Shown here piece after piece: positions 3,342 to 48,234 of a stretch of DNA of 64,000 nucleotides. The notes under the pieces are model-generated. The model had not been told where the DNA came from. It worked only from the letters and a program-made list of their open reading frames with translations, and did not search any database. Source of the stretch: Minisyncoccota bacterium (lineage in GTDB: Bacteria; Patescibacteriota; Microgenomatia; UBA1400; UBA12028); the NCBI GenBank assembly GCA_003487265.1, contig DNEP01000013.1:230706-294705 (forward strand), read 5' to 3'. Made by a program: the position numbers and the translations under genes. Within the stretch, counting starts at the first letter, position 1, and the number at the start of each line of letters is the position of its first letter.

Positions 3342-3354
3342 AGAATGACATTGA

Positions 3355-4215: not shown

Positions 4216-4263
4216 ATATCCTTTTTTGCTCGTCAAAAAACAGTACTGTTTACCCTGCAGGAA

Positions 4264-9062: not shown

Positions 9063-10143
9063 TATCTCGAATCTCCCGTTCAAATCTCTCTTCTGAATAT
9101 TTTTGCGCCATTTTTTTGATCTTTTCATGATCCCATTGTATATTTTGTGATTCTTGAATCGCGTCGATCATGCTTTGCGTTTTGAAATCGTCAACAAACA
9201 GTCCGTTTTCACCTTCAACAACCGTCTCAAGGAAACCTCCCGATCGATGCACAATGGCGGGAGTTCCATACATCATCGCCTCAATTGGGATCATGCCAAA
9301 ATCTTCATCCTCTGCGGGGTAGATCACCGCACGCGCACCTGCATATAATTTTGCAAGCTCAAGATCAGAAACCGCGCCCAGAAACGAAACAGTCTTTCCC
9401 GCGCGCGCCTTCAACTCCTCAACGCTTTCACCAATTCCAACAACCTTCAACTTCACTCGTAGTTGTGTACACGCATCGATCACAAGATTGGGATGTTTAC
9501 TGTACACCACTCGTCCCACAAAAAGATAATAATCTTCTCGTTTTTGATCCACATCCAGCGATGAAATTGGTGGATAGATCACCACACTATCGCGTCGATA
9601 AAACTTTTGAATTCTTTTTTGCACTTCTTGTGAGTTCGCAATCATCACGGTTGGATTTTGCGCGGAATAATAATCAACAATGCGTAAAAAATGATTTGCA
9701 ATCTCGCCTAACACATGCATCCACTTTTTTTCTTTCCAGTTTGATTTTGTGGTGTATCCGTACAACGAGCGCGGGGGAGTATGACAGTAACACAGGTGCA
9801 TCGCGTCTGGGCGCATACGCACCGCTTTTGCCATATACATATTTGAGGAAGAAATCACAACGTCGTAGGCAAACAAATCCAACGAACGAAAAAAATTCGA
9901 AGCGAACACGCGCAATGGCGAGAAGAGCTTTTTGATGAAGGGAATCTTGGTTGCCCAAGTTTCACGTATATCCCAAGAAGAAAAACGCGTCCAATGTTTT
10001 CCCAACGCTTGCTTGTCAACAAACGCAACGTACACGGGCGCCTCAGGAAACATTTTGTGGAGTTTTTCCAACACCCGTTCGGCTCCACCATATTCGCGGA
10101 GATAATCGTGAACTAACGCGACTTTCATGTTTGAACGATTCAT
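9043..10143 (-). CDS. GT4-family glycosyltransferase
   Basis: GT-B fold family 4 C-terminal signature (EDFGMIPIEAMMYGTPAIV...GGFLETV..G..G). Its ATG overlaps the stop of the upstream exonuclease gene (ATGA). Confidence 0.85.
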   Translation of the reverse strand: MNRSNMKVALVHDYLREYGGAERVLEKLHKMFPEAPVYVAFVDKQALGKHWTRFSSWDIRETWATKIPFIKKLFSPLRVFASNFFRSLDLFAYDVVISSSNMYMAKAVRMRPDAMHLCYCHTPPRSLYGYTTKSNWKEKKWMHVLGEIANHFLRIVDYYSAQNPTVMIANSQEVQKRIQKFYRRDSVVIYPPISSLDVDQKREDYYLFVGRVVYSKHPNLVIDACTQLRVKLKVVGIGESVEELKARAGKTVSFLGAVSDLELAKLYAGARAVIYPAEDEDFGMIPIEAMMYGTPAIVHRSGGFLETVVEGENGLFVDDFKTQSMIDAIQESQNIQWDHEKIKKMAQKYSEERFEREIRDIIQQSP

Positions 10144-11096
10144 ACAAACAGCGCCTCCTGCACTCCAAGCTCAAACGCGTCTAAAGGAAGGAGAGGTAAT
10201 AATGTGCGAAAGCCAAGCTTTTCAAACATTGAAACGGCTTTATCTTTTTCATATCCCGAAACACGACAGGCTTCCAGATCAAATTGAAGTGGAACAGCGC
10301 AATCAATCGTCGCTAACTGCTGACTTAACTTTGCTGCCTCATAATCTTCGGACAGTAACTTAACCAAGCGAGGAGTAAGAACCTTTTTCTGCTCTGCGGT
10401 GAGCGAGGTTGGAGCGGTGAGTTTTTTATAGATCTCATCGACCGTTCCAAACGCTTTTATAAGCGAAGTAGCCGTTTTTTCTCCAACTCCTTTGACCCCA
10501 GGGATATTATCAGATGCATCTCCTGCGAGCGCTTTATAATCCACAATCTCATGAGGGCCAATTCCCATACGTTCCTCAACATCTGCCGAAGAATACTCGC
10601 GCGCTTCCTCGCGATGATGCGCGGGCATGTACACCGTCGTTTTTTCATCTCGAATCAGTTGATAGGCATCACGATCACCTGTGAGAATAATCGTGCGAAC
10701 AGTATTGTATTGCTCGTTTTGTGCGATTTTTTCTGAAATTGTTCCAATCACATCGTCTGCTTCATATCCCTCAACGCCAAAAATGGGAATGTTTAACGTT
10801 TCCACAACTTCGCGCACGCGACCAAGTTGAGAGATGAGATCGGTCGGCGTTTCTTTACGTTGTGCTTTATATCCCGCAAAGCTCGCATGACGAAAGGTGG
10901 GTTTTCCCATATCGAACGCCACCGCAATATATTCAGGGTGCAAATCTTTGATCACCTTCAACAGAATACGAGAAAACCCATACACCGCATTAACCAATTC
11001 GCCTTCTGGCGTTGTAAGCGGTGGAAACGCGTGGTACGCGCGGTACACAACCGCATGACCATCAACAACAACAAAAATGTCTTTATTCGAAAGCAT
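10140..11096 (-). CDS. 5'-3' exonuclease (FEN/PolI N-terminal domain family)
   Basis: PIN-like 5'-nuclease motifs (VVVDGHAVVYRAYHA, GYEADDVIGT) and an H3TH region (ASDNIPGVKGVGEKTA). Confidence 0.85.
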   Translation of the reverse strand: MLSNKDIFVVVDGHAVVYRAYHAFPPLTTPEGELVNAVYGFSRILLKVIKDLHPEYIAVAFDMGKPTFRHASFAGYKAQRKETPTDLISQLGRVREVVETLNIPIFGVEGYEADDVIGTISEKIAQNEQYNTVRTIILTGDRDAYQLIRDEKTTVYMPAHHREEAREYSSADVEERMGIGPHEIVDYKALAGDASDNIPGVKGVGEKTATSLIKAFGTVDEIYKKLTAPTSLTAEQKKVLTPRLVKLLSEDYEAAKLSQQLATIDCAVPLQFDLEACRVSGYEKDKAVSMFEKLGFRTLLPLLPLDAFELGVQEALFV

Positions 11097-11605: not shown

Positions 11606-12025
11606 ATGTCCTGGCTACTTCCCGCAATTCTCTCTGCCCTATTTGCCTCACTTGTTACGATTCTCGCAAAAATTGGAATTAAAGGAGTTGACAGTAATCT
11701 CGCAACTCTTATTCGCACCCTAGTCATTCTTCCGTTCATCTTTTTTATTGTGCTTGCACAAGGCCACCTCAAAGAAATCGGCTCACTTTCAAAAACAACC
11801 TTGATCTTTTTGGTTCTTTCTGGACTCGCGACAGGATTATCTTGGCTTTTCTACTTTCGCGCGCTACAGATCGGCGACGTTCATAAAGTTGTACCCATCG
11901 ATAAATTGAGTTTCGTGTTTTCGATTCTTTTGGGTGTGCTTGTTTTCCACGAAAAAATCAGCGCATATGGAATCTTCGGAATAGCCTTGCTCGTTTTGGG
12001 AACGCTACTTGTCGTTTTCGTTTGA
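11606..12025 (+). CDS. EamA-like small (4-TM) DMT-superfamily transporter
   Basis: 139 aa, four hydrophobic helices, EamA/DUF6-type sequence (ILAKIGIKGVDSNLATLIRTLVILPF...). Confidence 0.7.
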   Translation: MSWLLPAILSALFASLVTILAKIGIKGVDSNLATLIRTLVILPFIFFIVLAQGHLKEIGSLSKTTLIFLVLSGLATGLSWLFYFRALQIGDVHKVVPIDKLSFVFSILLGVLVFHEKISAYGIFGIALLVLGTLLVVFV

Positions 12026-17657: not shown

Positions 17658-18719
17658 TTATGTCCTTTCATATCTCACTTCTGTTAATGGTAGCGTTGGA
17701 TCTCGATCTATCGTGTTTGGTTCTGAAAATCTTTTCAAACGAAAAGCAACACTTCCCGCAACTCCAATCATCGCTGCGTTGTCCATGGCATATCGTTTTG
17801 ACCGAGGAAAATACACGTTCATTTTTTGAGATTTTGCAAACGCACGAAGCTTTTTTCGCAACAACAGATTTGCCGACACTCCACCCCCACATATGATCGT
17901 CTTTGGATGAACAAGTCGAGTCGCATACTCCACTCGCTCCATAAGATGTAATATTGCGACACGCTGAAAAGATGCCGCGATATCCTGAATCTGCGTTTTT
18001 GATAACGGTGACTCTTGTTGTAATAACTGAATTTGCCTCGATACCGACGCTTTTAATCCAGAATAACTAAACTCACAGTTTTTTCTATCCCGAAGCGGAA
18101 TTGGAAACTCAAACGCTCGATCGTTTCCCTTTTCGGCCAACTGTGCGAGCACCGCACCACCAGGATATCCCAACCCCAACATGCGCGCGACTTTGTCAAA
18201 CGCTTCTCCAACTGCGTCATCCAAGGTTTCTCCTAACAGTTCATACACACCATTGTCTCGCATAAAATGAAGTTCGGTGTGTCCACCGGAAACCAATAAA
18301 ACTATTGCGGAAAATTGATCATGAACGAATTGAAAAGATTCTGCGGGAGAACAGAGTACCGAATACAGATGACCTTCCATGTGGTTTATCGCGATAAGTT
18401 TCTTGTCGTATTTTTTAGCTAGTTCTTTTGCGGTTTTAATGCCCACCTCTAACGCGATTGCCAATCCCGGACCAATCGTCACCGCAATTGCATCAAGCGC
18501 TTCCAGATTTACTCCCGCTTTCTCTAATGAAAGTGCTACGCATTGATCAATTCTTTCTGCATGTGCGCGTTTTGCAAGAATGGGAACAACGCCACCATAC
18601 TCAGCATGTAGTTCGTGTTGAGAAGAGATAATGTTCGACAACACGCGTGAACCGCGCACCACGGCAACAGAAGTGTCGTCGCAAGAAGTATCAATGGCCA
18701 ATAGGAGTGGTTCGCGCAT
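17658..18719 (-). CDS. tsaD: tRNA N6-adenosine threonylcarbamoyltransferase TsaD (Kae1/YgjD)
   Basis: ASKHA-fold TsaD signatures (LLLAIDTSCDDTSVAV, GPGLAIALEVG, HMEGHLY). Confidence 0.92.
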   Translation of the reverse strand: MREPLLLAIDTSCDDTSVAVVRGSRVLSNIISSQHELHAEYGGVVPILAKRAHAERIDQCVALSLEKAGVNLEALDAIAVTIGPGLAIALEVGIKTAKELAKKYDKKLIAINHMEGHLYSVLCSPAESFQFVHDQFSAIVLLVSGGHTELHFMRDNGVYELLGETLDDAVGEAFDKVARMLGLGYPGGAVLAQLAEKGNDRAFEFPIPLRDRKNCEFSYSGLKASVSRQIQLLQQESPLSKTQIQDIAASFQRVAILHLMERVEYATRLVHPKTIICGGGVSANLLLRKKLRAFAKSQKMNVYFPRSKRYAMDNAAMIGVAGSVAFRLKRFSEPNTIDRDPTLPLTEVRYERT

Positions 18720-18760: not shown

Positions 18761-19363
18761 ATGAAACTAAAGAAAAGAACGATCAAAAAACTCCTAGGGT
18801 TGGTGTTTTTTCTTATCATTATGTCTTTTTTCTCTCAAGAAAAAACTTCCCCATTTTTTCACACACCTTTTCCCAGTGAAACTTCTAAGCCACAAATCGT
18901 TTTGTCATCACCTACACTCATCTCCACTTCATCTGCAAATCTGTATTCTGTTGAGCGAGTTGTTGACGGCGATACGATTCGCGTGACTGTGGATGGAAAG
19001 TCAGAATCTGTTCGAATCGTTGGAATTGATGCACCAGAAAGCGTCGCCCCCAATCAACCCATAGAATGCATGGGAAAAGAGTCATCTGCGTTTCTCACAA
19101 GTTTACTCGAAAACAAACAAGTTCAACTGGAAAAAGACGAAACACAACAGGATCGGGACAAGTACGGCCGTTTGCTTCGATTTGTTTTTTTGGAAGACAA
19201 TGTTGATGTTGGCCTACAAATGATCGAAAAAGGATTCGCCGAAGAAAAACTGTACACGACAAAACCGTACCTGTTTCGCACACAGTACCTTGAAGCGCAG
19301 AAATACGCACAGGAACAAAAACTGGGGATTTGGAGCGAGCAGTGTATCGTCACCACGAAATAA
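18761..19363 (+). CDS. Thermonuclease (SNase-like) family secreted nuclease
   Basis: SNase motifs (VVDGDTIRV, RIVGIDAPES, DRDKYGRLLRFVF) after an N-terminal signal/TM (MKLKKRTIKKLLGLVFFLIIMSFF). An internal ATG was used rather than the track start. Confidence 0.8.
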   Translation: MKLKKRTIKKLLGLVFFLIIMSFFSQEKTSPFFHTPFPSETSKPQIVLSSPTLISTSSANLYSVERVVDGDTIRVTVDGKSESVRIVGIDAPESVAPNQPIECMGKESSAFLTSLLENKQVQLEKDETQQDRDKYGRLLRFVFLEDNVDVGLQMIEKGFAEEKLYTTKPYLFRTQYLEAQKYAQEQKLGIWSEQCIVTTK

Positions 19364-20411
19364 CACGATCGTTTTCACACGAACCAACAGCAATATTCAC
19401 CCAAACAACAACTGCTTCGCGTTCGATACGTTCAAGCGCGGACATCGTTCGATCTGCCCACTCAATCGCAATGACCGCATTTTCTTGAAGCATTTTCTCA
19501 AATCCGAGTGAAAACAACTCGTGTTCTTCGGACAATCTCCACGCGTCAATGTGAATACATGGAATGATTTTTCCTTCAGCCTCAAACTGATATTCCTTGC
19601 AGAGAACGTAGGTCGGAGAAGATATCGTTCGGGCAATCTTCAGTGCGGATGCGATCCCTTTCACGAACTGCGTTTTTCCAGCCCCCATCTCTCCCCGCAA
19701 TGCAAAAATAATCGGTTTGTGACCAAAATGATTTTTTTGCTGAAGCGCACAGAGTTCACCCAGCTCCTTCGTTCGATCAACCGAGTGCGATATAAACTCA
19801 TTTTTTGCATGGACGGGAGATGCTCCTTGTCTCAATATAATTGGATTATCAAGTGTGGTGTCGATGATTGTTGAGGGTTCAACATGAGGAAGCTCACCAA
19901 CATCAATCACCGCATCAATAAGATTTTGTTGTGTATCATCAAGAAATGAAAACACATCTACTATTGAGTATGGACGTTTCTGATCACTTGCATTTGCACC
20001 TGTTGCAGTAATCGGTTTTCCGAAGGCATAAACAATCTCATTCACCAACGGATACGAAGAAATGCGAATCCCCAAGGTTCCATGGTTGGACTCAACAAAC
20101 GTCGCAACGCGGTGTTTTCCCGATGAAATCACTGTCACCGGTCCGGGCAAGAACTGTTTGTACACATTTCGTGCAACGTTGTTCAGTACAACGTATTTTT
20201 CAGCCATCTGGATATCCGCTACTGCTATAGATAGTGGTTTGCCATCACGTCTTTTTTTATATTGTAAAAGTTTCTGAACCGCTCGTTCATTCGTTGCATC
20301 AACTCCTAGTCCATATGTTGTTTCGGTTGGATAGATAATCATTCCACCAGAAGAAAGAATATGCACAACTTGCGAGAGAAAATCAATCGAAGAAGGGATA
20401 AGGACATTCAT
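19350..20411 (-). CDS. Fused L-threonylcarbamoyladenylate synthase TsaC (YrdC/Sua5 domain) and TsaE (YjeE P-loop ATPase) protein
   Basis: N-terminal YrdC domain (IYPTETTYGLGVDATNERAVQKL...KPLSIAV) followed in the same frame by a TsaE Walker-A domain (GEMGAGKTQFVKGIA) and a C-terminal TsaE-like region. Confidence 0.8.
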   Translation of the reverse strand: MNVLIPSSIDFLSQVVHILSSGGMIIYPTETTYGLGVDATNERAVQKLLQYKKRRDGKPLSIAVADIQMAEKYVVLNNVARNVYKQFLPGPVTVISSGKHRVATFVESNHGTLGIRISSYPLVNEIVYAFGKPITATGANASDQKRPYSIVDVFSFLDDTQQNLIDAVIDVGELPHVEPSTIIDTTLDNPIILRQGASPVHAKNEFISHSVDRTKELGELCALQQKNHFGHKPIIFALRGEMGAGKTQFVKGIASALKIARTISSPTYVLCKEYQFEAEGKIIPCIHIDAWRLSEEHELFSLGFEKMLQENAVIAIEWADRTMSALERIEREAVVVWVNIAVGSCENDRVISW

Positions 20412-20420
20412 GATTCTGTT

Positions 20421-20792
20421 CTATTTTGCATCCATGTCTAACTGTTTAACTGCTTTAATCGGAATCATCAAGCACTTTTCACGAGTTGGTGCGATTGTAG
20501 AAATTCCCATACGTTTCATCACATGAATCGCGTCGAGTTTACGTACTTCCTCGAGTGATAACCCTTGAATCATCTCAGAAACAATACTCGCACTCGCCGT
20601 TGAGATCGCACATCCAACTCCACGCCATTTTACCTCAAGGATTTTGTTATCTTGTACAAGCAAATAAAACTCAACCATATCGCCACAACTTGCGTTCATT
20701 TCTCGAAATGTGTGCGTGGGAGACTGTAAAACACCAAAATTACGAGGATGCTGCGCGTGATCGAGGATGACTTCCTGATAAAGATCATTCAT
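20421..20792 (-). CDS. sufU: SUF Fe-S cluster assembly scaffold/sulfur-transfer protein SufU (IscU-like)
   Basis: NifU/IscU-like cysteine motifs (NASCGDMVEF..., GVGCAISTASAS). Located immediately downstream of sufS. Confidence 0.85.
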   Translation of the reverse strand: MNDLYQEVILDHAQHPRNFGVLQSPTHTFREMNASCGDMVEFYLLVQDNKILEVKWRGVGCAISTASASIVSEMIQGLSLEEVRKLDAIHVMKRMGISTIAPTREKCLMIPIKAVKQLDMDAK

Positions 20793-20804: not shown

Positions 20805-22049
20805 TCATCCAAGATTGAAAACAGATTTCACTTTTTCCAATCCTGAAACAAGCACATCAACATCAGTTTTTGTTGAGTACACACTGAAACTCGCTCTTGT
20901 TGATGCGGCCCATGCGAATTTTCGATGTAATGGCATGGTACAGTGATGACCAGAACGCACCGCAACCCCCTCGCTATCCAGCACCTGCGCGACGTCATGC
21001 GCGTGCACTCCATCCAGAAGGAACGCCACACTTCCAACTCGTTTATTCGAATCGAGAGATCCGAGTATTTTGACATGTTCTACCGCGGATATCTTTTCCA
21101 GTGTATACACCACAAGTTCACGATCGTATTGTTCAACATCATTCATGTTGAGATGCGTTAAATACGCACACGCTTTTGCAAGCCCAACGGCTCCCGCAAC
21201 ATCCGGAGTTCCTGCAATAAAACGATCGGGAAGGTCTGCGTATGTGGTGAGATCAGTCGTCACCTCATCAATCATTCCCCCTCCAAACAACACGGGATTC
21301 ATCTGCTCAAGCATATGTTGAGAAACAATCATTCCTCCAATACCCATGGGTCCCAACATTTTATGCCCACTAAATGCAAACACATCTGCCCCAAGTGAGG
21401 GAAAAGAAATTGGAAGATGAGGCGCGCTCTGCGCGCCGTCAATCACGACCATCGCGCCAACTTCATGCGCCATTTTTGCAATTAACTCAACGGGGTTGCG
21501 CGTGCCAATCGCATTCGAAACATGAACAACCGCCACCAACTTCACACGTAAACCATCTTTTCGATGCAGTTTCAGAGACAAATCTTGAAGATCAAGGAGG
21601 CCTTCTTGCGTAACCGAGACCACCTCAAACTTTGCGCCTGTTCGCTTACACACTTCTTGCCAAGGAACAAAGTTTGAATGATGTTCCATCTCCGTCGTAA
21701 TCACAACATCCTTTTCAGAAAGATGGTCAAGTGCCCACCCCCAAGCAATCAAGTTCAACGCCTCTGTGGTGTTTCTCGTTAAAATCAATTGATTTTCGGT
21801 TGCTCCAAAAAACTGCGCAATGCGTTGTCGAGACTCATGAAAAATATGCGTGCTTTCGTCACCCAGTACATGAATTCCTCGATGAACATTTGCATTGTGC
21901 AGTTGATAATATTCCTGAATCGCATCAAGAACGACCTTCGGTTTTTGGGAAGTTGCGGCAGAATCAAGATAAACGAGCGGTTTTTGATCGTGAATCTCTC
22001 GGGATAAAATGGGAAAATCCGCACGACAGTTTTGTAATTGTGTATTCAT
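20805..22049 (-). CDS. sufS: Cysteine desulfurase SufS
   Basis: Class V aminotransferase, PLP-lysine region (SGHKMLGPMGIGG) and SufS active-site cysteine loop (RSGHHCTMPL). Confidence 0.92.
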   Translation of the reverse strand: MNTQLQNCRADFPILSREIHDQKPLVYLDSAATSQKPKVVLDAIQEYYQLHNANVHRGIHVLGDESTHIFHESRQRIAQFFGATENQLILTRNTTEALNLIAWGWALDHLSEKDVVITTEMEHHSNFVPWQEVCKRTGAKFEVVSVTQEGLLDLQDLSLKLHRKDGLRVKLVAVVHVSNAIGTRNPVELIAKMAHEVGAMVVIDGAQSAPHLPISFPSLGADVFAFSGHKMLGPMGIGGMIVSQHMLEQMNPVLFGGGMIDEVTTDLTTYADLPDRFIAGTPDVAGAVGLAKACAYLTHLNMNDVEQYDRELVVYTLEKISAVEHVKILGSLDSNKRVGSVAFLLDGVHAHDVAQVLDSEGVAVRSGHHCTMPLHRKFAWAASTRASFSVYSTKTDVDVLVSGLEKVKSVFNLG

Positions 22050-23979: not shown

Positions 23980-24779
23980 AACTCAAGTTTTTTCATGACG
24001 GAATCAAATCCGTCTCGCATAATCTGATCAGCGAGTGATGTATCTCCAGAAGTAACAATCGATCCCTTCGACATAAGGTGTACCGCATTGATGGGAAGAT
24101 ATTTCAACAATCGTTCATAATGCGTGATAATCACACAACCCATTTGTGAATCTGCAACCATTTCCTTGAGATATTGAGAAACCATGGTGATCGCGTCAAC
24201 GTCCAGTCCCGAATCGATTTCGTCGATAAACGCAAAACGTGGTTTTAAGAACTTCATTTGTAACAGCTCTAGTCTCTTTTTTTCTCCTCCACTAAAACCT
24301 TCATGAATGCTTCTGTGCATGGAAGCGGTTGGAATACCCAGTAGCGTCGCCTCTCGTTCAACCTCATGGTAAAAATTCAACACATTTTCAATAAGACCAA
24401 ATTTTTGTTCATACGCTGTTTTGATTAATTGAAAAACAGAAACGCCCGCAATCTCTATTGGTGTTTGAAATGAAACAAACAATCCCGCGCGTGCTCGCTC
24501 ATCAGCGGAGAGCGTAACGAGTTCCGTCTTTTCCAACACGCAAGATCCAGAATCAATCACATAATCGGGATGTCCAGAAAGTGCCATCGCGAGTGTTGAT
24601 TTTCCAGAACCATTTTTTCCCATTAATACGTGAATTTCTCCAGATCTCATACGACAAGAAACATCTTTCAAAATACCTTTTTTTTGTGACGTTTGAGGCT
24701 CGATAATCGCCGATACTCCAAGGTGAGAAATGATCAGTTCTGATTTGGTTATGTTTTTGGATATGTTCGTATTGCGCAT
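23976..24779 (-). CDS. sufC: Fe-S cluster assembly ATPase SufC
   Basis: ABC ATPase Walker A (GKNGSGKSTL), signature motif (FSGGEKKR) and Walker B (FIDEIDSGLD). Confidence 0.92.
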   Translation of the reverse strand: MRNTNISKNITKSELIISHLGVSAIIEPQTSQKKGILKDVSCRMRSGEIHVLMGKNGSGKSTLAMALSGHPDYVIDSGSCVLEKTELVTLSADERARAGLFVSFQTPIEIAGVSVFQLIKTAYEQKFGLIENVLNFYHEVEREATLLGIPTASMHRSIHEGFSGGEKKRLELLQMKFLKPRFAFIDEIDSGLDVDAITMVSQYLKEMVADSQMGCVIITHYERLLKYLPINAVHLMSKGSIVTSGDTSLADQIMRDGFDSVMKKLEL

Positions 24780-25252
24780 CGTGCCTCGTTTTTTATTGAT
24801 TCGCGGGTACTCAACGTGAGTAAGTCTTGTTCAGAAAACCAACCAATTGCAGTCGCTTCTGTCGTTTCATGTTGAATGTCAAGATTTTCATCTATCGCTC
24901 GTACAAAATACGCAAAAACGTAATGTTGTTCACAAATCTCACCATTCGATCGCGCCTTGTGTTCTCCAGGCTTATTAATCCAATGAAGATCTGCATAAAA
25001 GGGTACGGGAAGAAACTCCGAAGTTTCTGATTCCAACACGGGTAGTGCGCTTATCGCGCGAACGCGAAGATTCGTTTCCTCAAAAAACTCACGTTCAATC
25101 GCAAAATTTGGCACTTCATTTGGCTCAACATGTCCCCCTGGAGCAAGCCAAATTCCCAACATGCGATGTTTGATGAGTAAAACTTTGCCATCACGAACCA
25201 ACCACCCCGCAACGGTAAAACATCTTTTGGATACTGTGTCGTGAAGAATCAT
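24749..25252 (-). CDS. NUDIX hydrolase
   Basis: Nudix box GGHVEPNEVPNFAIEREFFEETNL. Confidence 0.8.
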   Translation of the reverse strand: MILHDTVSKRCFTVAGWLVRDGKVLLIKHRMLGIWLAPGGHVEPNEVPNFAIEREFFEETNLRVRAISALPVLESETSEFLPVPFYADLHWINKPGEHKARSNGEICEQHYVFAYFVRAIDENLDIQHETTEATAIGWFSEQDLLTLSTRESIKNEARCAIRTYPKT

Positions 25253-26571: not shown

Positions 26572-27843
26572 TTACGTTTTTCGAGCAACAATTCTGCAAT
26601 CCTTTCGAAGTTTCTCCCAATGCACAAACTCACACGAAAGAAGAAAAAAAGAAATCACCGTCATCAGCTGGTTGCGATACGTAAACAACACGTGAATATA
26701 AGAATGTTCCGCTGCAAAAAAATACCACGCGTAAGGAAGGAAACCTAAGCCTAGAAAAATAATAACGCGCTCAAACCTTGCGGAACGAAACGTAAGATAT
26801 CGCAACATAAATATCGAATATCCAATTCCCAAATATAAAAGTGCAAATTTATTGCGTTTGTCGTATCCGCGGAACTGTAAAAAGTTTCGTTTTACTGCAA
26901 CAACACGACTAAACTCAGCATCAACTGGACTCATCATACGATCCTCAACTTTTGTATATCCTGAGGTTATCGCTCCCCGAACATAGGTGAACTCGGCAAG
27001 AAACCATTTGCTCGCCCAAAGTGATGAATAACCAACCATCCAAAAAAACGCGAGAAGCGCCACTTTTTGAACAAGCTTCCCCCGTATTCGTTCAACCGCA
27101 ATAAACAATAACAAGCTCAACCCAACAAGTGGTGCCGAAAGAAAATCAATATATGAGGTCACGCCTCCCATAATAAAAAAGAAAATGAGTGTACTTGAGA
27201 AAGACCAATGTTGATTTTTCAACAAAATATACGATCCAATCATTCCTGTCATAAAAACATTGGAGAGTTGCAATGATTCTCCAATCCAAAAGAAATCAAC
27301 CGCAATCAAGCCAATCAAAAAAGCAAAAGCTGCTCGAATACCCACTCTTTTTCGCATCTCAACAAACACCAATCCTGCAAGAATATACAGCGCAATCGAC
27401 CAAACGACGCGGACATGAGCATATGACCCAATCGTCAATAATGGTCGAAGGAAAATCAAGTACCCATGCCAATATCGCTCGTACACCGTTTCATGAACAC
27501 CAGATTTTTGACCGATTTTTTCAAGATTCAGCGCCTGATCCTCTGCTTTTTCATCTCCATCATGCTGAATTGTCCGAATCGAAGAACGAAGAGGATCATT
27601 CGAATCCACCGAATACGCAACATTCAACATAATTGCATCGGTAAAGTTGTCCAATACAATCTTTCTCCAAGAAATACCCCGCGAAGGATACATTCCCTCA
27701 TGTTTGATAACTGCAACAGAACCCTCGAGGTTTTTCCTCACCATTTCCGTTGGGATATTATTCACGACATACAACGATCCAACAAAAATCAACAACAATA
27801 CGACATAACTCAACACAATACGGTAAATCACCTGTAGCATCAT
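26572..27843 (-). CDS. Polytopic integral membrane protein (uncharacterized)
   Basis: 423 aa, at least 9 TM helices, an N-terminal signal-anchor followed by a soluble loop. No catalytic motif recognized. Confidence 0.55.
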   Translation of the reverse strand: MMLQVIYRIVLSYVVLLLIFVGSLYVVNNIPTEMVRKNLEGSVAVIKHEGMYPSRGISWRKIVLDNFTDAIMLNVAYSVDSNDPLRSSIRTIQHDGDEKAEDQALNLEKIGQKSGVHETVYERYWHGYLIFLRPLLTIGSYAHVRVVWSIALYILAGLVFVEMRKRVGIRAAFAFLIGLIAVDFFWIGESLQLSNVFMTGMIGSYILLKNQHWSFSSTLIFFFIMGGVTSYIDFLSAPLVGLSLLLFIAVERIRGKLVQKVALLAFFWMVGYSSLWASKWFLAEFTYVRGAITSGYTKVEDRMMSPVDAEFSRVVAVKRNFLQFRGYDKRNKFALLYLGIGYSIFMLRYLTFRSARFERVIIFLGLGFLPYAWYFFAAEHSYIHVLFTYRNQLMTVISFFLLSCEFVHWEKLRKDCRIVARKT

Positions 27844-27895
27844 CTGATTATGACACTCTCACGAATAAAAATACAAATCAAGGTATAATGCGCAG

Positions 27896-29188
27896 ATGCT
27901 CCTTCGTAATATTCAAAAAAAAGGCCCCCTGCTCATCGGCATCGCCGCAATCCTCTGGGCGTTTGACGGAATCCTTCGAAGAAGTCTGTACTCACTCAAT
28001 CCTCTTATCATCGTTTTTGGTGAACACGCTGTCGGAGCCGTGTTACTTGTTCCAGTTTTATGGAAGAAAAAATCCAATCTATTCGCTTTTCGAAAGGGCG
28101 AGTTGCTTTCGATGTTTTGGATTTCGCTTTTCAGTGGACTTTTGGGAACATTGTGGTTTACCACTGCATTACTTCAGACGAGCTTTATCTCGTTCAGTGT
28201 TGTATTTTTACTTCAAAAAACACAACCCATTTTCGCCGTGATATCGGCGAGAATACTGTTGAAAGAAAAAATCTCGCGAAGGTATTTATTTTGGGCAGGA
28301 GTCGCAATGATTGCGGCTTTCTTTGTGACCTTTCCAAATGGAAAGATTAATTTTGAAACTGGATCTGGAACAGTTTTTGCGGGACTTTACGCACTCGGAG
28401 CCGCATTCGCCTGGGGAAGTTCGACTGCATTTTCTAAGCGCGCGTTACAAGGGAAAGATTCAACAGTAATTACGGGAATGCGATTTTTCTTTACAACTGT
28501 TCTTGCGTTTGTTGGAGTATTGTTATTTCAAAAAACCACTCAACTTACTCATATTTCACCAATTCAATTTAGCACCTTTGTTGGTATCGCGCTTTCAACG
28601 GGAATGGTTGCGCTTTGGATTTACTACAAAGGACTTTCACAAACAGAAGTGAAAACTTCGACAATTGTTGAACTATTATTTCCTGTGTCCGCCGTGTTCT
28701 TAGATGCGATTGTGTATCATTCCTTTTTATCCCCATCACAGTATCTCGCGACAATTGTTTTACTATTTGCTTCAACAAAAATCAGTTATTTACACACACA
28801 AAAATTCACGTTCATCACGACACAAATACGGGGTAAAGGTCGCGGGAAAAAGATTGGAGTTCCAACAATAAATCTCAAGATTCCAACAACACTCACACTA
28901 AAAGAAGGAGTCTATTCCTCCTCCATCGTGATTAATAATCGAAAATACGACGGCGCTCTTCACTATGGTTCAATTCCAACATTTCATGAATCTCAAAAAA
29001 ACATGGAGGTTCATCTCATCAATACCACTTCATTTTCTGAAGTGATCACCGAAACCACACCCATTCAAGTAAAAATTCAGAAATACATTCGACCGATTCA
29101 ATTTTTTGAGAACACGCATGATTTAGTCAAACAAATCCAAGATGACATCGCTTTAATTACTGACGAACGTTTATCCTCGCAAGAATAA
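27896..29188 (+). CDS. Fusion protein: EamA/DMT-family 10-TM transporter (RibN-like) + C-terminal riboflavin kinase (flavokinase) domain
   Basis: Residues 1-300 are a duplicated EamA domain. Residues about 305-430 match the riboflavin kinase fold: GKGRGKKIGVPTINL ... GVY ... HYGSIPTF ... EVHLI ... DLV.QIQDD. Confidence 0.75.
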   Translation: MLLRNIQKKGPLLIGIAAILWAFDGILRRSLYSLNPLIIVFGEHAVGAVLLVPVLWKKKSNLFAFRKGELLSMFWISLFSGLLGTLWFTTALLQTSFISFSVVFLLQKTQPIFAVISARILLKEKISRRYLFWAGVAMIAAFFVTFPNGKINFETGSGTVFAGLYALGAAFAWGSSTAFSKRALQGKDSTVITGMRFFFTTVLAFVGVLLFQKTTQLTHISPIQFSTFVGIALSTGMVALWIYYKGLSQTEVKTSTIVELLFPVSAVFLDAIVYHSFLSPSQYLATIVLLFASTKISYLHTQKFTFITTQIRGKGRGKKIGVPTINLKIPTTLTLKEGVYSSSIVINNRKYDGALHYGSIPTFHESQKNMEVHLINTTSFSEVITETTPIQVKIQKYIRPIQFFENTHDLVKQIQDDIALITDERLSSQE

Positions 29189-30173: not shown

Positions 30174-31274
30174 ATGTTTTTAGAATCTTCATCCGATTTT
30201 ATTCCACCGTATACCTCTGAACTCGGATTGTTGTACGACAGTTATCGCTCGCGCTTAGAGAAGCTTCTTGGAGGATCCATTACTGGCCAACTAATCTCAC
30301 TCCCTCATTTCTCCGCACGAAACGAGTCCAATCGAGCAATACGTGTTCGCACCAGAGAGCAAATTGACTTCGAAAAATATACAGCGGTTTGTTTTTGCGA
30401 TCACGACGACACACTCGAACGATATTCGCCGCGTAAAGAATCATATGTTCAAGAGTTATGTCCAATGATACCCTCAGGAGATCGCGACGCATGTTCCACC
30501 ACACTACGCATACTCAACGCTGTGTGTCGCATACGTCCAATCACGGGGAAGGGACCGGATCGATACTCCCCGCTTCTTGAGATGATCGCGTGTAGCACAT
30601 TACTCGACTCACAAATATCTGCGTTGAAATTACAGAAGATATCAGATGTGCAATCGGCAAAAGAATTTATCATTCAAACCGTTCTCCCTCAATTTGCGGG
30701 AATGCTTGAATACAACGAACGTGGATTTTTTCGAGAAGTAAAACATCAAGCATTGGCAATCCAATGGGATACAAAACCATCTCGTGTAGCCAAGATCGTA
30801 TGGGACACATATCGCAAACACATGACGCAATCAACAATACCAGATCAGGAACTTGCAGGACTCAATATCGATCCAGCTATTTACTGGATTATCACCACGT
30901 ATGGAGAAATTGGATTTCAACCTGAAAAAGTGATAAACGCATTAGAATATCTCCAAACTCATTCTTATCGCATGCCAAACGAGCTTCTTTTTTTGCTTCG
31001 AGGAACAAAAGAGCCAGTTGTTTCACATGTACTCCAATCTTTTCCTGAAACCATTCCCGTACTCGCGATTGATGATCGTCTTGACCAACTAGAGCAATAT
31101 CGAACGAATCCCCGAATCGTTCCAATTCAGGCGAAACGCGAGATCCCATTTCAAACGAGAAATGATGCGCAACCCGATCATTCTCTTTTCACATATCCTG
31201 TTATTCAAATGGATCAAGGAAACTTCAATGAAAAATTAGTGAAAATCGTTTCTTCACTCAGTGCATCCACATAG
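30174..31274 (+). CDS. Hypothetical protein with HAD-hydrolase-like motifs
   Basis: Possible HAD motif I (FCDHDDTL = DxDxT), motif III K (GTKEP) and motif IV (VLAIDDR). A TATAAT box lies 7 nt upstream of the ATG. Confidence 0.4.
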   Translation: MFLESSSDFIPPYTSELGLLYDSYRSRLEKLLGGSITGQLISLPHFSARNESNRAIRVRTREQIDFEKYTAVCFCDHDDTLERYSPRKESYVQELCPMIPSGDRDACSTTLRILNAVCRIRPITGKGPDRYSPLLEMIACSTLLDSQISALKLQKISDVQSAKEFIIQTVLPQFAGMLEYNERGFFREVKHQALAIQWDTKPSRVAKIVWDTYRKHMTQSTIPDQELAGLNIDPAIYWIITTYGEIGFQPEKVINALEYLQTHSYRMPNELLFLLRGTKEPVVSHVLQSFPETIPVLAIDDRLDQLEQYRTNPRIVPIQAKREIPFQTRNDAQPDHSLFTYPVIQMDQGNFNEKLVKIVSSLSAST

Positions 31275-35468: not shown

Positions 35469-36215
35469 TCAATCACTTCTTGCATGCTTGAAAGATTTCA
35501 ACAACGGCTTTTCCCAGCCAAAACATGTTTCTCGATTTTTCAACTTATCAAAAGCATTGATACAACTCGGGTCCAGCTTAACAAATTCCTGCAAAAGAAC
35601 AACTACTTCCTCAATAAACCCGCCTACCTCACCATCCGAGTCATCAACTCCGCCAGTACATAGCTTCTTGTCTAATCTTAAGAGTAAATCAATCAACAAC
35701 CCTGCTGTTTGAATACTTACGGGCAAATCAGAGATGACAACAGATAAACGATTGCAACCTTCGGAGAGCGAATTTTGGTAGGCAAACCAAGTACGAGACG
35801 GACCAGTGTAGGCTTTGATGTATTTCAGGGAAGATGTAATCGTCTTTTTTGCAGCGATCAGCTCATTCTGTGATAAGGTTCCCAACTTTCCACTACAAGT
35901 TGGATTTGGGACCAGTTTCTTATCATTATCGGTCAATGGCTTTCCATCCTGAACCACATAAATTGCCAAAGCAACCATGTGCTTGCAGAGCGTGCCGTTG
36001 ACCCCTAAATAACAAGTACAGTGGCCATAATCATATCGTCGGGCTTCTACTGAGACTTGGTATGGTTTTGTTCCTTTGACAACAGCTGTGTACGATCGAA
36101 TACCCTCTTCTACTTGGGTGACTTTATCACTTTCGTATAAGCCCACTGCTTTCTCGAATGTTGATCCATCTGTGGCGAACTTGATTTTATCGAGGGTAAA
36201 GTCAGGCTGGTTCAT
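35469..36215 (-). CDS. SWIM zinc-finger domain protein
   Basis: SWIM CxC...CxH motif (YDYGHCTCYLGVNGTLCKHMVALAIY). Its start overlaps the last 14 nt of the upstream Fic gene. Confidence 0.7.
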   Translation of the reverse strand: MNQPDFTLDKIKFATDGSTFEKAVGLYESDKVTQVEEGIRSYTAVVKGTKPYQVSVEARRYDYGHCTCYLGVNGTLCKHMVALAIYVVQDGKPLTDNDKKLVPNPTCSGKLGTLSQNELIAAKKTITSSLKYIKAYTGPSRTWFAYQNSLSEGCNRLSVVISDLPVSIQTAGLLIDLLLRLDKKLCTGGVDDSDGEVGGFIEEVVVLLQEFVKLDPSCINAFDKLKNRETCFGWEKPLLKSFKHARSD

Positions 36216-37365
36216 TTGATTTTTTAATTTCTTCTTTGCTCACAAACAAATCCAGATATTTCTTATACCAAAATTCCCTGCCGTACTCGATATCTTTATC
36301 TCTTTGTTCAAGAATTCCCAACTCGACAAGTTTTTTAACTAATTCATTGGCCTGAGGACGTGAAAGCTCCGTCCACTCTTCAACTTTTTTAACGCTAACA
36401 ATCGGAAGCTTATAAAGGTTTTCCAAGACCGTCATACCAGTTATTGTTCTCCTGCCTAAAGATTGAATTTTTATAGTATCTGTTTGACGTAAGATGTTGA
36501 TTTTTTTCGATGCTTTAATTGCTTCTGCAGCTATGATAGCAACACCATCCAAAAAGAAGTCAAGCCAGCCAGAAACGTCAGCATTTTCCTGATGATAGGA
36601 ATTTAATGATCCATAATATGTCTTTTGATTATTCAAAAAATATTCAGATAAATAAAGTACTGGCCTCTCCAGGATTCCTAGCTTGCATAGGTAGAAAGTA
36701 GTTAAAAGCCGCCCAGTTCTACCATTACCATCTAGAAATGGATGGATTGTTTCAAATTGGGCATGAGCTAAAGCTGCCTTAATAAGTGGCGGATATTCGT
36801 CAGTAGTATGCAGAAATTTTTCAAAATCATCTAAACACCGATTCATTTCCGTATGTGTTGGTGGCACAAACTTCGCAGTATTTGGAGAACCTCCTCCAAT
36901 CCAGTTTTGCGAAATTCTAAATTCACCCGGCGTTTTGCCAGGAGCATCGATCGTGCCACCAATCAATACCTTGTGAATTTCTCGTATAAATCTAAGCGAC
37001 AGAGGTAGCGTCTCTAATCTTTTCAAACCATATTCCATTGCGTGGATATAATGAACAATCCTCTCGACATCTTGAGGAAAACGGCTTTCAATTTGTGCCT
37101 CACTTTTAATAACGTCGATAATAGTTGCTTGGGTGCCTTCAATTTCACTTGACCGAGCCGCTTCTTTGCGAATGTACATAAAAATGAAGAAGTCTAAATC
37201 AGGCAGCAGCTGGGTAATACCATCTAATTTGCCCAACATAAGGGCAGCCTTGGCATGAAGCTGTTGAGTTTTGGAACTCAAGACAATCTGTTCCTTTGGA
37301 GGGAACTTATCTGGGATAAATGCCTGGTACCCACTAGGTTGTTGGATGAGTTTACCGATTTTCAT
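36202..37365 (-). CDS. Fic-family protein (class II, with inhibitory S/TxxxEG helix; DUF4172 N-terminus; C-terminal winged helix)
   Basis: Fic motif HPFLDGNGRTGRLL, inhibitory motif SSEIEG, N-terminal YQAFIPDKFPP (DUF4172-like). 387 aa. Confidence 0.85.
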   Translation of the reverse strand: MKIGKLIQQPSGYQAFIPDKFPPKEQIVLSSKTQQLHAKAALMLGKLDGITQLLPDLDFFIFMYIRKEAARSSEIEGTQATIIDVIKSEAQIESRFPQDVERIVHYIHAMEYGLKRLETLPLSLRFIREIHKVLIGGTIDAPGKTPGEFRISQNWIGGGSPNTAKFVPPTHTEMNRCLDDFEKFLHTTDEYPPLIKAALAHAQFETIHPFLDGNGRTGRLLTTFYLCKLGILERPVLYLSEYFLNNQKTYYGSLNSYHQENADVSGWLDFFLDGVAIIAAEAIKASKKINILRQTDTIKIQSLGRRTITGMTVLENLYKLPIVSVKKVEEWTELSRPQANELVKKLVELGILEQRDKDIEYGREFWYKKYLDLFVSKEEIKKSNEPA

Positions 37366-42725: not shown

Positions 42726-43706
42726 ATGCAGTATAGATGGACAATATCACAAGAATCTAACAATCAGCTTACAGAAATAGATATGCAAAAACGCATGTTT
42801 GACGTTCTTCCTCCGCTTAATAAATCAACACAACACTTTGTTCATGAATCAACAATGAAAAGTTCGCTGTACTCGGCAAAAATCGAAGGGAATCCGCTTA
42901 CTGAAACACAATTCTCTCAAAATGAAGGTCAAGGACAGCACTTGCTGGAAGTCCAAAATCTAACACAGGCGTATGATCAAATCTCAAAAATGGAAAATAC
43001 GATCACGTTCTCACAAATCAAAAAACTGCATGCGATTGTGATGAACGCCCTATCCTCTTCTACAGGACAGTTTCGAAAAGAAATGGTTGCCGTGTACAAC
43101 AAGGCAGGAATCGTGGAATACCTTGCACCCCCTTGGCAAGAAATTGAGACGCGGATAACTCAACTTCTTGCTCAAATAGGTGACAGCTCCATTCATCCGA
43201 TCGTCGCTTCAGCAGTGTTGCATTTTGGTTTTGAAAAAATTCACCCCTTTATGGATGGAAATGGACGTGTTGGCAGACTACTCGCTTCAGCTTTTCTTAA
43301 TAAATCTGGATATGGATTCCGTGGAACATTGTCAATTGAAGAGCAACTCCATGAGCAAAAAAGTGAATATTATGACGCGCTTTCTTTTTCTGATGCGAAT
43401 GCAACTGAGTTTGTAACATTCTGGATTCGCGCAGTGCGAGACCGCGCTCTTCATGTATTTGAACAATACACTCAACTCAAATCACTACCAGAAAGAAAAG
43501 AGGATTCGCTCCTTCCTCGTCGAAGAGAGATTCTGTTGATCATTCGAGATCATAAACAAGTAACTTTTGATTTTCTGCATCGGCGATTTCTTCGCATTCC
43601 CTCAAGTACGCTTCATTTTGATCTCGAGCAACTTCAAAACGAGGGGTTTGTGACAAAAGTCGGTCAAACTCGAGGAGCGTTTTATATTGAAAGCCAAAAA
43701 ACGTAA
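42726..43706 (+). CDS. Fic-family protein (class II, second copy)
   Basis: Fic motif HPFMDGNGRVGRLL, inhibitory motif SAKIEGN, C-terminal wHTH-like region. Confidence 0.85.
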   Translation: MQYRWTISQESNNQLTEIDMQKRMFDVLPPLNKSTQHFVHESTMKSSLYSAKIEGNPLTETQFSQNEGQGQHLLEVQNLTQAYDQISKMENTITFSQIKKLHAIVMNALSSSTGQFRKEMVAVYNKAGIVEYLAPPWQEIETRITQLLAQIGDSSIHPIVASAVLHFGFEKIHPFMDGNGRVGRLLASAFLNKSGYGFRGTLSIEEQLHEQKSEYYDALSFSDANATEFVTFWIRAVRDRALHVFEQYTQLKSLPERKEDSLLPRRREILLIIRDHKQVTFDFLHRRFLRIPSSTLHFDLEQLQNEGFVTKVGQTRGAFYIESQKT

Positions 43707-45970: not shown

Positions 45971-46801
45971 TTATCCAACAGTGTTCATGCTCATACGAAT
46001 CTCATGATCTGATACTTGAGCCTCATGTGGAGTTAAGCCTTTGTGCTCAACTGCAATTGTTGAAATTTTTCCTGAATCACGGGTCACGTCGGTTTTATTG
46101 GAAAATTCAACATTTGATACGTATTTTAATAGTTTTTTTTGAGCTACTACTGCGTAAGGATCCGAAATTCCATACGGGGATAACATACCACCAACAGTAT
46201 ATAAAACGTTATAGTCTTCCTGCCCAAGCCACACCTCTCGTGCTCCTACAACAGCAAGATAATGTCCCACCTTCCCAGAAGATATATACGGCGCAAATAT
46301 TGGAGCTTGAATCAAAAGAAATTTTTGATTTGATAGAGTGTTCTGAATCCTTTCGGGTAATTCTGCGGGCTCAACAAACACCTCGTCCGTTTCGCATTCA
46401 TTAGCAACCAACTCCGAAAAATCGGAACCAATTGTAGACTCTCCTTTAGAAAGTTTGGCACGAAGAATAGCGTAAAGAAGTTGCCAATCCATTTTGCAGT
46501 TCATTACCTTAGATTGAAACCAATCAAACCCACACAGCAAAGCAACCGGAAAACATAGATAAAACCCTTGACCTTGAGTATCGGTGCGAATTAATTCTTG
46601 TATTTGTTTCCAGTTGTCTTGAAATAACAGTCTCCTCTCATCCGCATGACTCACATATTCAACAGGTAATTGTTTCTTATTCCATTCCATCATTCGTTGA
46701 ATTTCTTCTTGTGATGGATTGCGAAGCTCCATTGCCTGACTTAATTGATTATTTCGCACACACCAATTCCAATACCCTTGCTGGAACGATTCTAAACTCA
46801 T
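45971..46801 (-). CDS. Hypothetical protein with papain-like (C39/BtrH-like) Cys-His-Asp arrangement
   Basis: Motif QGQGFYLCFPVAL (Gln about 7 residues before Cys), GHYLAVVGA and a downstream QEDYN Asp. Confidence 0.35.
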   Translation of the reverse strand: MSLESFQQGYWNWCVRNNQLSQAMELRNPSQEEIQRMMEWNKKQLPVEYVSHADERRLLFQDNWKQIQELIRTDTQGQGFYLCFPVALLCGFDWFQSKVMNCKMDWQLLYAILRAKLSKGESTIGSDFSELVANECETDEVFVEPAELPERIQNTLSNQKFLLIQAPIFAPYISSGKVGHYLAVVGAREVWLGQEDYNVLYTVGGMLSPYGISDPYAVVAQKKLLKYVSNVEFSNKTDVTRDSGKISTIAVEHKGLTPHEAQVSDHEIRMSMNTVG

Positions 46802-48234
46802 ATCTTCTCTTTTGCTTCTCGCAGTCGCTCAATCGTCTTCTCTCGCCCCAACACCTCCATCGTTTCAAACAGGGGTGGAGTCGCGGTTTTTCCCGTAACA
46901 GCAACGCGAATCATCATAAAATATTGTGATTTTTTCCAGTCGTATTTTTCTTGCAATGATCGCAAACATGTTTCAAGCTCAGCAACACTCCATTGCGACA
47001 GTTGTTCAAGCTCAGCAATTGTTCGCGTAAGTTGTTCTGTCACCACACCCGCTTCAGATTTTTTCAACAATTCAGCAGGATTAACCGAAATATCTCGATA
47101 GAAAAAGTCGGTGAGCGATTCGAGATCACTTAAAAGCACCAAGCGTTCGCGAACCAATGGCAAGATTTTCCCCATGAGATCCATTGGAAAATCGGTGGGG
47201 GTAAACGGTTGTAATGCTTCAATGAGCTGGTCCTGCGTCAATTTTTCGCGAATATAGATGCCGTTCATCCATGCGAGTTTATTCAAATCAAAAATAGGAC
47301 CAGTTGTTTGCATACGATCAATTGTGAACACGCGTCGAAACTCATCGAGATTGAAGATGTCCTTTCCCTCAGGATGCGACCATCCCATCAAACATAAAAA
47401 GTTGATCAAGGCTTCGGGAATATATCCCTTGTTCATATAACTAATCAGCGACACATCATTTTTTCGTTTTGAAAGTTTCGAGTGATCGGCATTCCGAAGT
47501 AACGGCATGTGCGCGAAAGTTGGTGTCTCCCACCCAAAAGCCTCATACAAAAACAAATGTTTTGGTGTTGAGCTGATCCATTCTTCACCTCGAATCACAT
47601 GCGAAATCTGCATCATATGATCATCAACAACAACGGCGAAGTGATAGGTTGGAAATCCATCTGACTTCAACAGAACTTGATCATCAATCAGCGCATACTC
47701 AAACGAAACGTGACCCCGAATCGCATCCTCCCATTCAGCTTTTCCTGAATCGGGCATACGCAAACGAACAACGTGTTTTTCATGTTTGGCGCGCTTCTTG
47801 GCCTCCGCATAGGGGATATGCGAGCATCGCCCATCGTACATTGGAAGTTGCTTCTGTTTTTGTTGCTCAGCGCGCATAGCCTGCAACTCTTCTGGCGAAC
47901 AAAAACAATAATACGCCGTTCCGTTCTCCAAGAGTGTCTCAACATGCTGATGATAAATCTCTAGTCGCTCCGACTGTCGATATGGTTCAAACGGGCCTCC
48001 CAAATCAACACCTTCGTCGTGAGGAATCTTCAACCAAGTAAGTGCATCGTAAATAACCTGCTCCGCGCCCTCAACAAACCGCCCTCTGTCCGTATCTTCG
48101 ATACGAATAATAAATTTTCCATTATGATTTTTCGCAAACACGTAGTTGAATAACGCGATATACGCAGTTCCAACATGTGCAATCCCTGTCGGAGAGGGGG
48201 CGATACGGGTTCGAACGGTTAAAAAGGAACTCAT
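46798..48234 (-). CDS. gltX: Glutamate--tRNA ligase
   Basis: HIGH-type motif (PSPTGIAHVGTA) and KMSKS-type motif (KLSKRK). 478 aa. Confidence 0.95.
   Translation of the reverse strand: MSSFLTVRTRIAPSPTGIAHVGTAYIALFNYVFAKNHNGKFIIRIEDTDRGRFVEGAEQVIYDALTWLKIPHDEGVDLGGPFEPYRQSERLEIYHQHVETLLENGTAYYCFCSPEELQAMRAEQQKQKQLPMYDGRCSHIPYAEAKKRAKHEKHVVRLRMPDSGKAEWEDAIRGHVSFEYALIDDQVLLKSDGFPTYHFAVVVDDHMMQISHVIRGEEWISSTPKHLFLYEAFGWETPTFAHMPLLRNADHSKLSKRKNDVSLISYMNKGYIPEALINFLCLMGWSHPEGKDIFNLDEFRRVFTIDRMQTTGPIFDLNKLAWMNGIYIREKLTQDQLIEALQPFTPTDFPMDLMGKILPLVRERLVLLSDLESLTDFFYRDISVNPAELLKKSEAGVVTEQLTRTIAELEQLSQWSVAELETCLRSLQEKYDWKKSQYFMMIRVAVTGKTATPPLFETMEVLGREKTIERLREAKEKI

Follow-up and report, generated by a model that had tools for sequence, protein, structure and literature searches.

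In this analysis we consider a gene situated within a 64-kb stretch of DNA (the whole of which we refer to as ‘the window’) from contig DNEP01000013.1 of a Minisyncoccota bacterium; a small-genome groundwater organism belonging to the Patescibacteria / candidate phyla radiation (CPR). The gene joins a membrane transporter of the EamA/DMT type to a riboflavin kinase, and occupies positions 27896–29188 of the forward strand as a single open reading frame (ORF) of 430 codons, with no internal stop in either the ORF list or the sequence. Its component parts are as follows:

27896–29188, forward strand: complete coding sequence of an ImpX-like transporter / riboflavin kinase fusion, 430 amino acids (aa) plus stop (ORF list, Pfam, identical protein found elsewhere)
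27899–28330, forward strand: first EamA repeat, transmembrane helices TM1–TM5, residues 2–145 (AlphaFold2 helices, 80-sequence alignment)
28364–28789, forward strand: second EamA repeat, TM6–TM10, residues 157–298 (Pfam, AlphaFold2 helices, alignment)
28790–28804, forward strand: linker joining TM10 to the kinase’s first beta-strand, approximately 5 residues (about 299–303; AlphaFold2 secondary structure)
28802–29185, forward strand: ATP-dependent riboflavin kinase (flavokinase) domain, residues 303–430, predicted to be cytoplasmic (Pfam PF01687, Foldseek, PDB match)
28832–28873, forward strand: Gly-rich loop and PTxN motif, G313-K-G-R-G317-K-K-I-G-V-P323-T324-I-N326 (alignment with human RFK)
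29006–29008, forward strand: codon for Glu371 (invariant in 80/80 fused proteins; aligned with mEtHi of human RFK)
29090–29092, forward strand: codon for Arg399, in the ‘iRp..kF’ flavokinase segment (invariant in 80/80; aligned with ylRPekn of human RFK)

Taking the protein from its N-terminus onwards, Pfam recognises two EamA stretches (E = 1.3e-29; 103.6 bits, the cut-off being 28.2), the best of which covers residues 163–293. In our AlphaFold2 model, generated from an alignment of 80 fused proteins (predicted local distance difference test / pLDDT, 91.5; predicted TM-score / pTM, 0.86), residues 2–298 contain ten transmembrane helices, of which TM4 and TM9 are broken in the manner of other DMT carriers; the C-terminal part then forms a six-stranded beta-barrel (residues 304–399) followed by a helix (407–429). 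Each EamA repeat has its own set of residues that are invariant throughout the alignment—W21, D24, R28, R29, E43, Q107, K108 and Q110 in the first; W173, R196, Y243, Y244, E259, D270 and Q282 in the second. When searched against the PDB with Foldseek, the N-terminal part of the model matches LicB (7paf, TM-score 0.83) and YddG (5i20, 0.75–0.79), as well as SLC35 and triose-phosphate translocators; the same search returned no PDB chain spanning both the transporter and the kinase parts.

The junction between the two halves is short. From Q282 in TM10 to G313 of the kinase there are 29–33 residues in each of the 80 fused proteins; linker length is constrained to within ±2 residues across the fused family, a spacing that fits with the two domains being connected by a rigid tether. 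Because the loops predicted to face inwards contain 20 Lys and Arg residues against 4 in those facing outwards (the ‘positive-inside’ pattern), we predict an N-in/C-in topology, with both termini, and hence the kinase domain, lying in the cytoplasm.

The C-terminal domain matches the Pfam Flavokinase profile (PF01687) over residues 303–420, covering positions 4–119 of the 124 in the profile (E = 1.7e-23; 83.6 bits, the cut-off being 19.6), as anticipated by the original prediction, which had been made from the letters of the DNA without database searches; the strings that it quoted from this region map to residues 313–327 (GKGRGKKIGVPTINL), 338–340 (GVY) and 371–375 (EVHLI). The nearest solved structures by sequence are the human and yeast riboflavin kinases (E = 3e-5 for human RFK) and the kinase modules of bacterial flavin adenine dinucleotide (FAD) synthetases, whilst Foldseek pairs this part of the model, for which local pLDDT is 83–96, with 1q9s (TM-score 0.69, root-mean-square deviation 2.4 Å), 5a8a (TM-score 0.68), 1n06 and 5a89. 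As the NCBIfam RibF models align by their C-terminal halves only (from approximately model position 172–192 onward), with scores far below their equivalog cut-offs, the flavin mononucleotide (FMN) adenylyltransferase part of a typical RibF is absent; nor does the 430-aa protein contain any Pfam match to FAD_syn.

RFK structures have established the catalytic roles played in riboflavin kinases by the Gly-rich loop, by the PTAN motif and by the conserved Glu and Arg. In the fused protein, the loop running from G313 to N326 aligns with GfGRGskqlGiPTAN of human RFK, and G313, G317, P323, T324, N326, G338, Y340, E371, R399 and D417 are each invariant in all 80 fused proteins; Glu371 aligns with the glutamate that structural work on RFK has established as the catalytic base. 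With its signature residues both invariant and in register with those of the human enzyme, the kinase domain looks to be catalytically competent.

That the gene might represent two genes artificially joined by a frameshift or an error of assembly is, in our estimation, a negligible prospect. The 430-aa protein recurs identically on at least 24 contigs, drawn from independent JGI and ENA assemblies and including a groundwater metagenome, and these contigs also keep the same neighbouring genes; furthermore, 99 diverged fused homologues share the conserved junction. An artefactual origin can thus be ruled out, and the in-frame fusion of a ten-helix, duplicated-EamA transporter to a flavokinase stands as first proposed, being supported by the uninterrupted ORF, by Pfam and by the AlphaFold2 model.

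A different fate befalls the proposal that the transporter is ‘RibN-like’. As points of reference, the 5′ end of Vibrio cholerae ribN was recovered via the primers listed in the supplement to PMC5312566, then located in the genome; full-length orthologues were taken from Aeromonas caviae and from Vibrio sp. THAF191d, in which ribN is followed by a glutaredoxin-domain gene, matching the order seen in V. cholerae. By BLASTP, the transporter half of the fusion resembles RibN at approximately 30% identity across 82 residues only, and in a profile comparison it scores 21 bits with Aeromonas RibN and produces no match with Vibrio RibN, as against 234 bits for the ImpX protein of Fusobacterium. We therefore reject membership of the RibN family. 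A tblastn search of PLSDB with the transporter half identified a gene on a replicon of Fusobacterium vincentii (E = 3e-41; 97% of the query aligned, at 37% identity), whereas the Vibrio records, which are also contained in that database, gave no match at E ≤ 1e-3. We identify the Fusobacterium gene as an orthologue of ImpX, since an FMN riboswitch (RF00050, 118 bits) lies ahead of it and the ImpX reverse-primer site published by Gutierrez-Preciado et al. comes after it. Aligned pairwise, the two proteins are 37% identical over 294 aa with just two gaps (E = 1e-56), and of the residues visible in this alignment ImpX also has W21, D24, Q107-K108-x-Q110-P111, R196, Y243-Y244, E259, D270 and Q282.

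ImpX from F. nucleatum has been reported to restore growth to an E. coli riboflavin auxotroph, with the family—possibly under-detected—being found in Proteobacteria, Firmicutes and Fusobacteria only, all of them riboflavin-proficient species, and RibN being confined to Proteobacteria (PMC4418817). Judged by its full-length identity and 234-bit profile score, set against a near-nil similarity to RibN, the transporter half is a member of the ImpX family, and has in common with RibN only the fold of the DMT superfamily. Riboflavin nevertheless remains the likely substrate, as had been suggested, by virtue of the homology to ImpX and of the genomic links to riboflavin set out below.

How widespread is the fusion? 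A search covering 5.8 billion proteins returned approximately 80 full-length fused homologues of 410–436 aa, 42–55% identical to our protein and all containing both EamA and Flavokinase; their hosts are Patescibacteria (Gottesman-, Komeili-, Lipton- and Pace-/Paceibacteria), and their annotations merely ‘EamA family transporter’ or ‘DMT-like permease’. A profile search covering 1.84 billion cluster representatives gave 397 relatives at E ≤ 1e-30, and about 15 of these, clustered at 50% identity, were additional full-length fusions. The full-length relatives gathered in total comprise 99 fused and 136 unfused proteins, indicating that the fused architecture is widespread in Patescibacteria. The fused genes show no conserved neighbourhood, their contexts differing between the window and two other fused loci (those of relatives P0050 and P0016). 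In a neighbour-joining tree of the transporter halves, the fused and unfused forms are interleaved, requiring some 16 changes by parsimony; the tree is crude and lacks support values, however, and some of the ‘unfused’ entries are truncated gene calls, such that it should not be used for counting events. For this reason we go no further than to say that fusion, together with fission or rearrangement, took place more than once. The protein from the window is placed by this tree as sister to a clade in which a stand-alone kinase gene lies upstream of the transporter.

The unfused relatives are themselves informative. Those closest to the transporter half (56–60% identity) come from other Patescibacteria, and their gene arrangement varies. 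One group has a stand-alone flavokinase gene, encoding 131 aa and 35% identical to the kinase domain from the window, directly upstream of the transporter and overlapping its start by 11–23 nucleotides (nt); in Woesebacteria, a flavokinase gene of 147 aa is instead convergent with the unfused transporter, their 3′ ends overlapping by 8 nt. In Levybacteria (GCA_016180725.1, positions 2360–4963), a transporter 58% identical to ours closes a cluster for riboflavin synthase, lumazine synthase and GTP cyclohydrolase II (ribE-ribH-ribA); neither ribD nor ribB was seen in the 6 kb of sequence covered at this locus, and there is no FMN riboswitch in the 530-nt gap upstream. Another relative (P0127, 6001–7725) has its ImpX-like carrier fused to a HAD hydrolase—which could be a phosphatase of the pathway or an FMN hydrolase—and lies directly upstream of genes for riboflavin synthase and lumazine synthase. 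No flavin-related neighbours were seen at the loci of two other unfused relatives.

A second type of transporter-kinase fusion, apparently independent of the first, is found in archaea. The relative P0158 (8001–9287), from a contig that encodes an archaeal RNase P subunit, belongs to the same clade of carriers (243 bits with the profile) but has at its C-terminus the CTP-dependent riboflavin kinase PF01982; this architecture is present in four diverged proteins (P0158, P0274, P0275 and P0276), whose unfused relatives carry names from the Aenigm-, Micr-, Woese- and Nanoarchaeota. On the basis of these domain matches, two distinct families of riboflavin kinase are joined to the same clade of carrier at the same C-terminal position. 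That the same fusion has been made with a different kinase family in archaea suggests to us that it is physical proximity itself that has been selected.

The analysis shows the identities of the two domains, the catalytic signature, the topology, the homology to a validated importer and the repeated gene linkage; in which direction the carrier works, that the kinase is active, and any passing of riboflavin straight from one domain to the other are inferred. The logic would be that of metabolic trapping, in which a vitamin enters the cell by way of a facilitator and is phosphorylated by a cytoplasmic kinase, so preventing its exit. Riboflavin would enter through the N-terminal ten-helix carrier of the ImpX type and be converted to FMN by the C-terminal ATP-dependent kinase, tethered by approximately five residues beneath the cytoplasmic face of that carrier. 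Because FMN is charged, it would not be expected to leave again through the transporter and would thus be trapped in the cell; net accumulation would then be driven by ATP instead of, or in addition to, an ion gradient (‘vectorial phosphorylation’), an arrangement that could suit fermentative organisms with small genomes. We put the probability that a single polypeptide both imports riboflavin and phosphorylates it to FMN, accumulating it by trapping, at roughly 75%. The coupling of uptake to FMN formation, already raised in the original prediction, is the most economical reading of the domains, the signature and the homology to ImpX. Certain points do weigh against it: many DMT/DME proteins are exporters; the relatives found inside riboflavin biosynthesis clusters would also fit with export or with transport of a precursor; and the FMN riboswitch, the regulatory hallmark of bacterial ImpX, is missing by sequence search, there being no RF00050 match at Rfam gathering thresholds in the window, at two other fused loci or at the loci of four unfused CPR relatives.

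Several other explanations deserve consideration, the first two of which leave the function untouched and concern what the fusion itself provides. It may be that joining the two domains serves only to give 1:1 co-expression and to localise the kinase at the membrane, without channelling or gating, and we regard this as a serious possibility that falls a little short of even odds. It accords with close relatives managing with separate genes in three arrangements, and with the interleaving of fused and unfused forms in the crude tree described above, which suggests that fusion and fission come easily and are functionally neutral; it accords less well with a linker that is both very short and constrained in length, with a pTM that suggests a fixed arrangement of the domains, or with the archaeal fusion to a different kinase family, which argues that proximity has been selected. 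At the other end of the scale, the protein might perform a true group translocation, with the flavin pocket of the kinase docked onto the exit of the carrier, riboflavin being handed over without passing through the bulk cytoplasm, turnover being gated by phosphorylation, and ATP (CTP in the archaeal case) energising uptake under weak membrane energetics; a solution that would have been reached convergently in CPR bacteria and DPANN-like archaea. We advance this extension tentatively, and think it on the whole unlikely.

The remaining alternatives would change the function. If the DMT module were to secrete flavin, for instance as an extracellular electron shuttle or a good shared with a host, the kinase would make FMN or bind flavin at the membrane; the best NCBIfam model for the transporter is indeed that of an exporter family (TIGR00950), most characterised DME-type proteins export, and some relatives reside within riboflavin biosynthesis clusters. 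Its validated homologue ImpX, however, imports riboflavin and sits behind an FMN riboswitch, an element that shuts genes down once FMN is abundant, a form of control that would be expected of an importer. Patescibacteria are moreover generally poor in cofactor synthesis, and two Pfam scans, which took in most of the ORFs, turned up neither genes for riboflavin biosynthesis nor an FAD synthetase or a second flavokinase in the 64-kb window. Residence in a rib operon is also a trait of the known importers ribM and rfnT (PMC4418817), and export strikes us as improbable. We are equally sceptical that the flavokinase domain is non-enzymatic and acts as a flavin or nucleotide sensor that gates the carrier. 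A riboflavin kinase domain does serve as a ligand sensor in archaeal RbkR, although RbkR itself retains kinase activity (PMC5397151); among the 80 fused proteins, however, there is no variation at any position that aligns with a catalytic residue of known riboflavin kinases, and the window offers no other flavokinase by the scans just mentioned. Lastly, the carrier could move some other substrate—a flavin analogue, a lumazine precursor or an unrelated metabolite—with its fusion to a kinase being incidental. EamA proteins have broad substrate ranges, one relative has a HAD hydrolase in place of a kinase as its fusion partner, those in rib clusters could carry intermediates of the pathway, and some unfused relatives have no flavin-related neighbour; but carriers of this one clade have been fused to two different riboflavin-specific kinase families, two further arrangements place a flavokinase gene beside the carrier gene, and the homology to an experimentally confirmed riboflavin importer runs over the full length, leaving this, too, with little to commend it. 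Taken together, it is complementation by ImpX, the logic of the riboswitch, the invariant residues and the double kinase fusion that lead us to disfavour export, a sensor or another substrate, and to prefer import of riboflavin with its conversion to FMN.

Turning to the DNA upstream of the fused gene, the intergenic stretch is 52 nt in length and contains the TATAAT box previously proposed to direct a leaderless transcript, which we confirm as lying 6 nt before the ATG. The box is omitted from a scan for sigma-70 consensus promoters because it lacks an acceptable −35 element. Among the 64 genes of at least 100 aa in the window, however, 10 have a TAnnnT motif ending 6 nt ahead of the start codon and another 4 have one ending at 7 nt, against a background of around 1 per position, and most of the genes so marked have no Shine-Dalgarno sequence. 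The box, and examples of genes that start in this way, are listed here:

27884–27889, forward strand: TATAAT, −10-like box 6 nt ahead of the ATG, probably the promoter for a leaderless mRNA (from the sequence)
10140–11096, reverse strand: gene with TAnnnT start (positional scan, as for all those below)
11606–12025, forward strand: gene with TAnnnT start
20421–20792, reverse strand: gene with TAnnnT start
20805–22049, reverse strand: gene with TAnnnT start
24749–25252, reverse strand: gene with TAnnnT start
30174–31274, forward strand: gene with TAnnnT start
46798–48234, reverse strand: gene with TAnnnT start
60051–61124, reverse strand: gene with TAnnnT start

Since −10-like boxes peak 6–7 nt ahead of start codons across the window (14 of the 64 genes), the leaderless proposal gains support; the pattern points to frequent use of leaderless mRNAs by this genome, and it is plausible that the fused gene simply follows this general habit. 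Amongst related fused genes, one has AATAAT-N6-ATG and another has no such box.

As to the immediate neighbours, the 3′ end of the fused gene overlaps by 18 nt (29171–29188) with a convergent gene for a small Transgly_assoc membrane protein of the GlsB/YeaQ type. Divergent from the fused gene is a gene for a multi-pass membrane protein of 423 aa (26572–27843, reverse strand), and downstream one for a protein of 366 aa (30174–31274, forward strand); neither has a Pfam match, and both are kept in all contigs of this organism. The window also contains a half-size DMT protein of 139 aa with a single EamA repeat (11606–12025, forward strand), unrelated to the clade of the fused transporter.

Elsewhere in the window, Pfam scans of most ORFs gave genes typical of Patescibacteria housekeeping, amongst them DnaJ, HrcA, TrpRS, TsaD, SufS/B/D, TruB, MscL, a lactate/malate dehydrogenase and an M29 aminopeptidase; DnaK, GrpE, FtsH, SufC, RpoD, DnaG, GluRS, AspRS, RecJ, SecD and SecF fell outside the Pfam scans and were recognised by eye. 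One ORF (19350–20411, reverse strand) joins Sua5/YrdC (TsaC) to TsaE in a t6A tRNA-modification fusion, near to TsaD (17658–18719), and two proteins with Fic/DOC domains, one with Fic_N, are encoded less than 7 kb apart (36202–37365, reverse strand; 42726–43706, forward strand).

Full-text literature searches found no description of a transporter-riboflavin kinase fusion, in agreement with the earlier remark, whose author was not aware of it as a characterised architecture, and likewise none of the archaeal carrier-PF01982 fusion; to our knowledge, no case has been described in which a vitamin carrier and its trapping kinase form one polypeptide. The components, and metabolic trapping as a principle, are already known; the novelty lies in their being joined covalently, in the spread of this form through CPR bacteria, and in an archaeal counterpart reached by convergence. 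Our analysis offers a functional annotation for hundreds of Patescibacteria proteins that are labelled only as ‘EamA family transporter’, and widens the ImpX family to take in CPR bacteria and DPANN-type archaea. Should such hosts lack the riboflavin pathway, as is generally assumed, this would contrast with the report of ImpX in riboflavin-proficient bacteria only. The fusion is also the probable means by which these small-genome organisms come by FMN; in fused lineages without RibF, it may be the sole riboflavin kinase. It would also provide a compact natural model for asking if transport can be mechanically coupled to phosphorylation outside of the sugar phosphotransferase system (PTS). With the kinase coming without an adenylyltransferase domain, a question is also raised about FAD.

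Amongst known systems, ImpX of Fusobacterium nucleatum / Desulfitobacterium shares with the carrier its ten-helix duplicated EamA fold and 37% identity over the full length, but is a stand-alone protein of approximately 300 aa controlled by an FMN riboswitch, whereas the fusion has a C-terminal kinase, no riboswitch, and Patescibacteria as its hosts. RibN, as found in Rhizobium, Vibrio cholerae and Aeromonas, is likewise a ten-helix riboflavin importer of the DMT/EamA type, yet resembles the carrier at the level of the superfamily only. The kinase half has the PF01687 domain of bacterial RibF and eukaryotic RFK, with the same beta-barrel fold, Gly-rich loop, PTxN motif and Glu/Arg signature; in bacterial RibF, however, the domain is normally preceded by an N-terminal FMN adenylyltransferase, in whose place the fusion has a membrane transporter. 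In its proposed mode of action, the closest parallels are the trapping pairs PnuC and NadR (for nicotinamide riboside), RibM/PnuX and RibF, and the mammalian RFVT and RFK, each being a facilitator working with a cytoplasmic kinase that traps its cargo; there the carrier and kinase are separate proteins, whilst in the fusion a linker of some five residues ties them covalently into one chain. The archaeal fusion of an ImpX-like carrier to a kinase of the RibK type has the same carrier clade, the same C-terminal position for the kinase and the same presumed function, and differs in its archaeal hosts and in having as its kinase the CTP-dependent PF01982 rather than PF01687.

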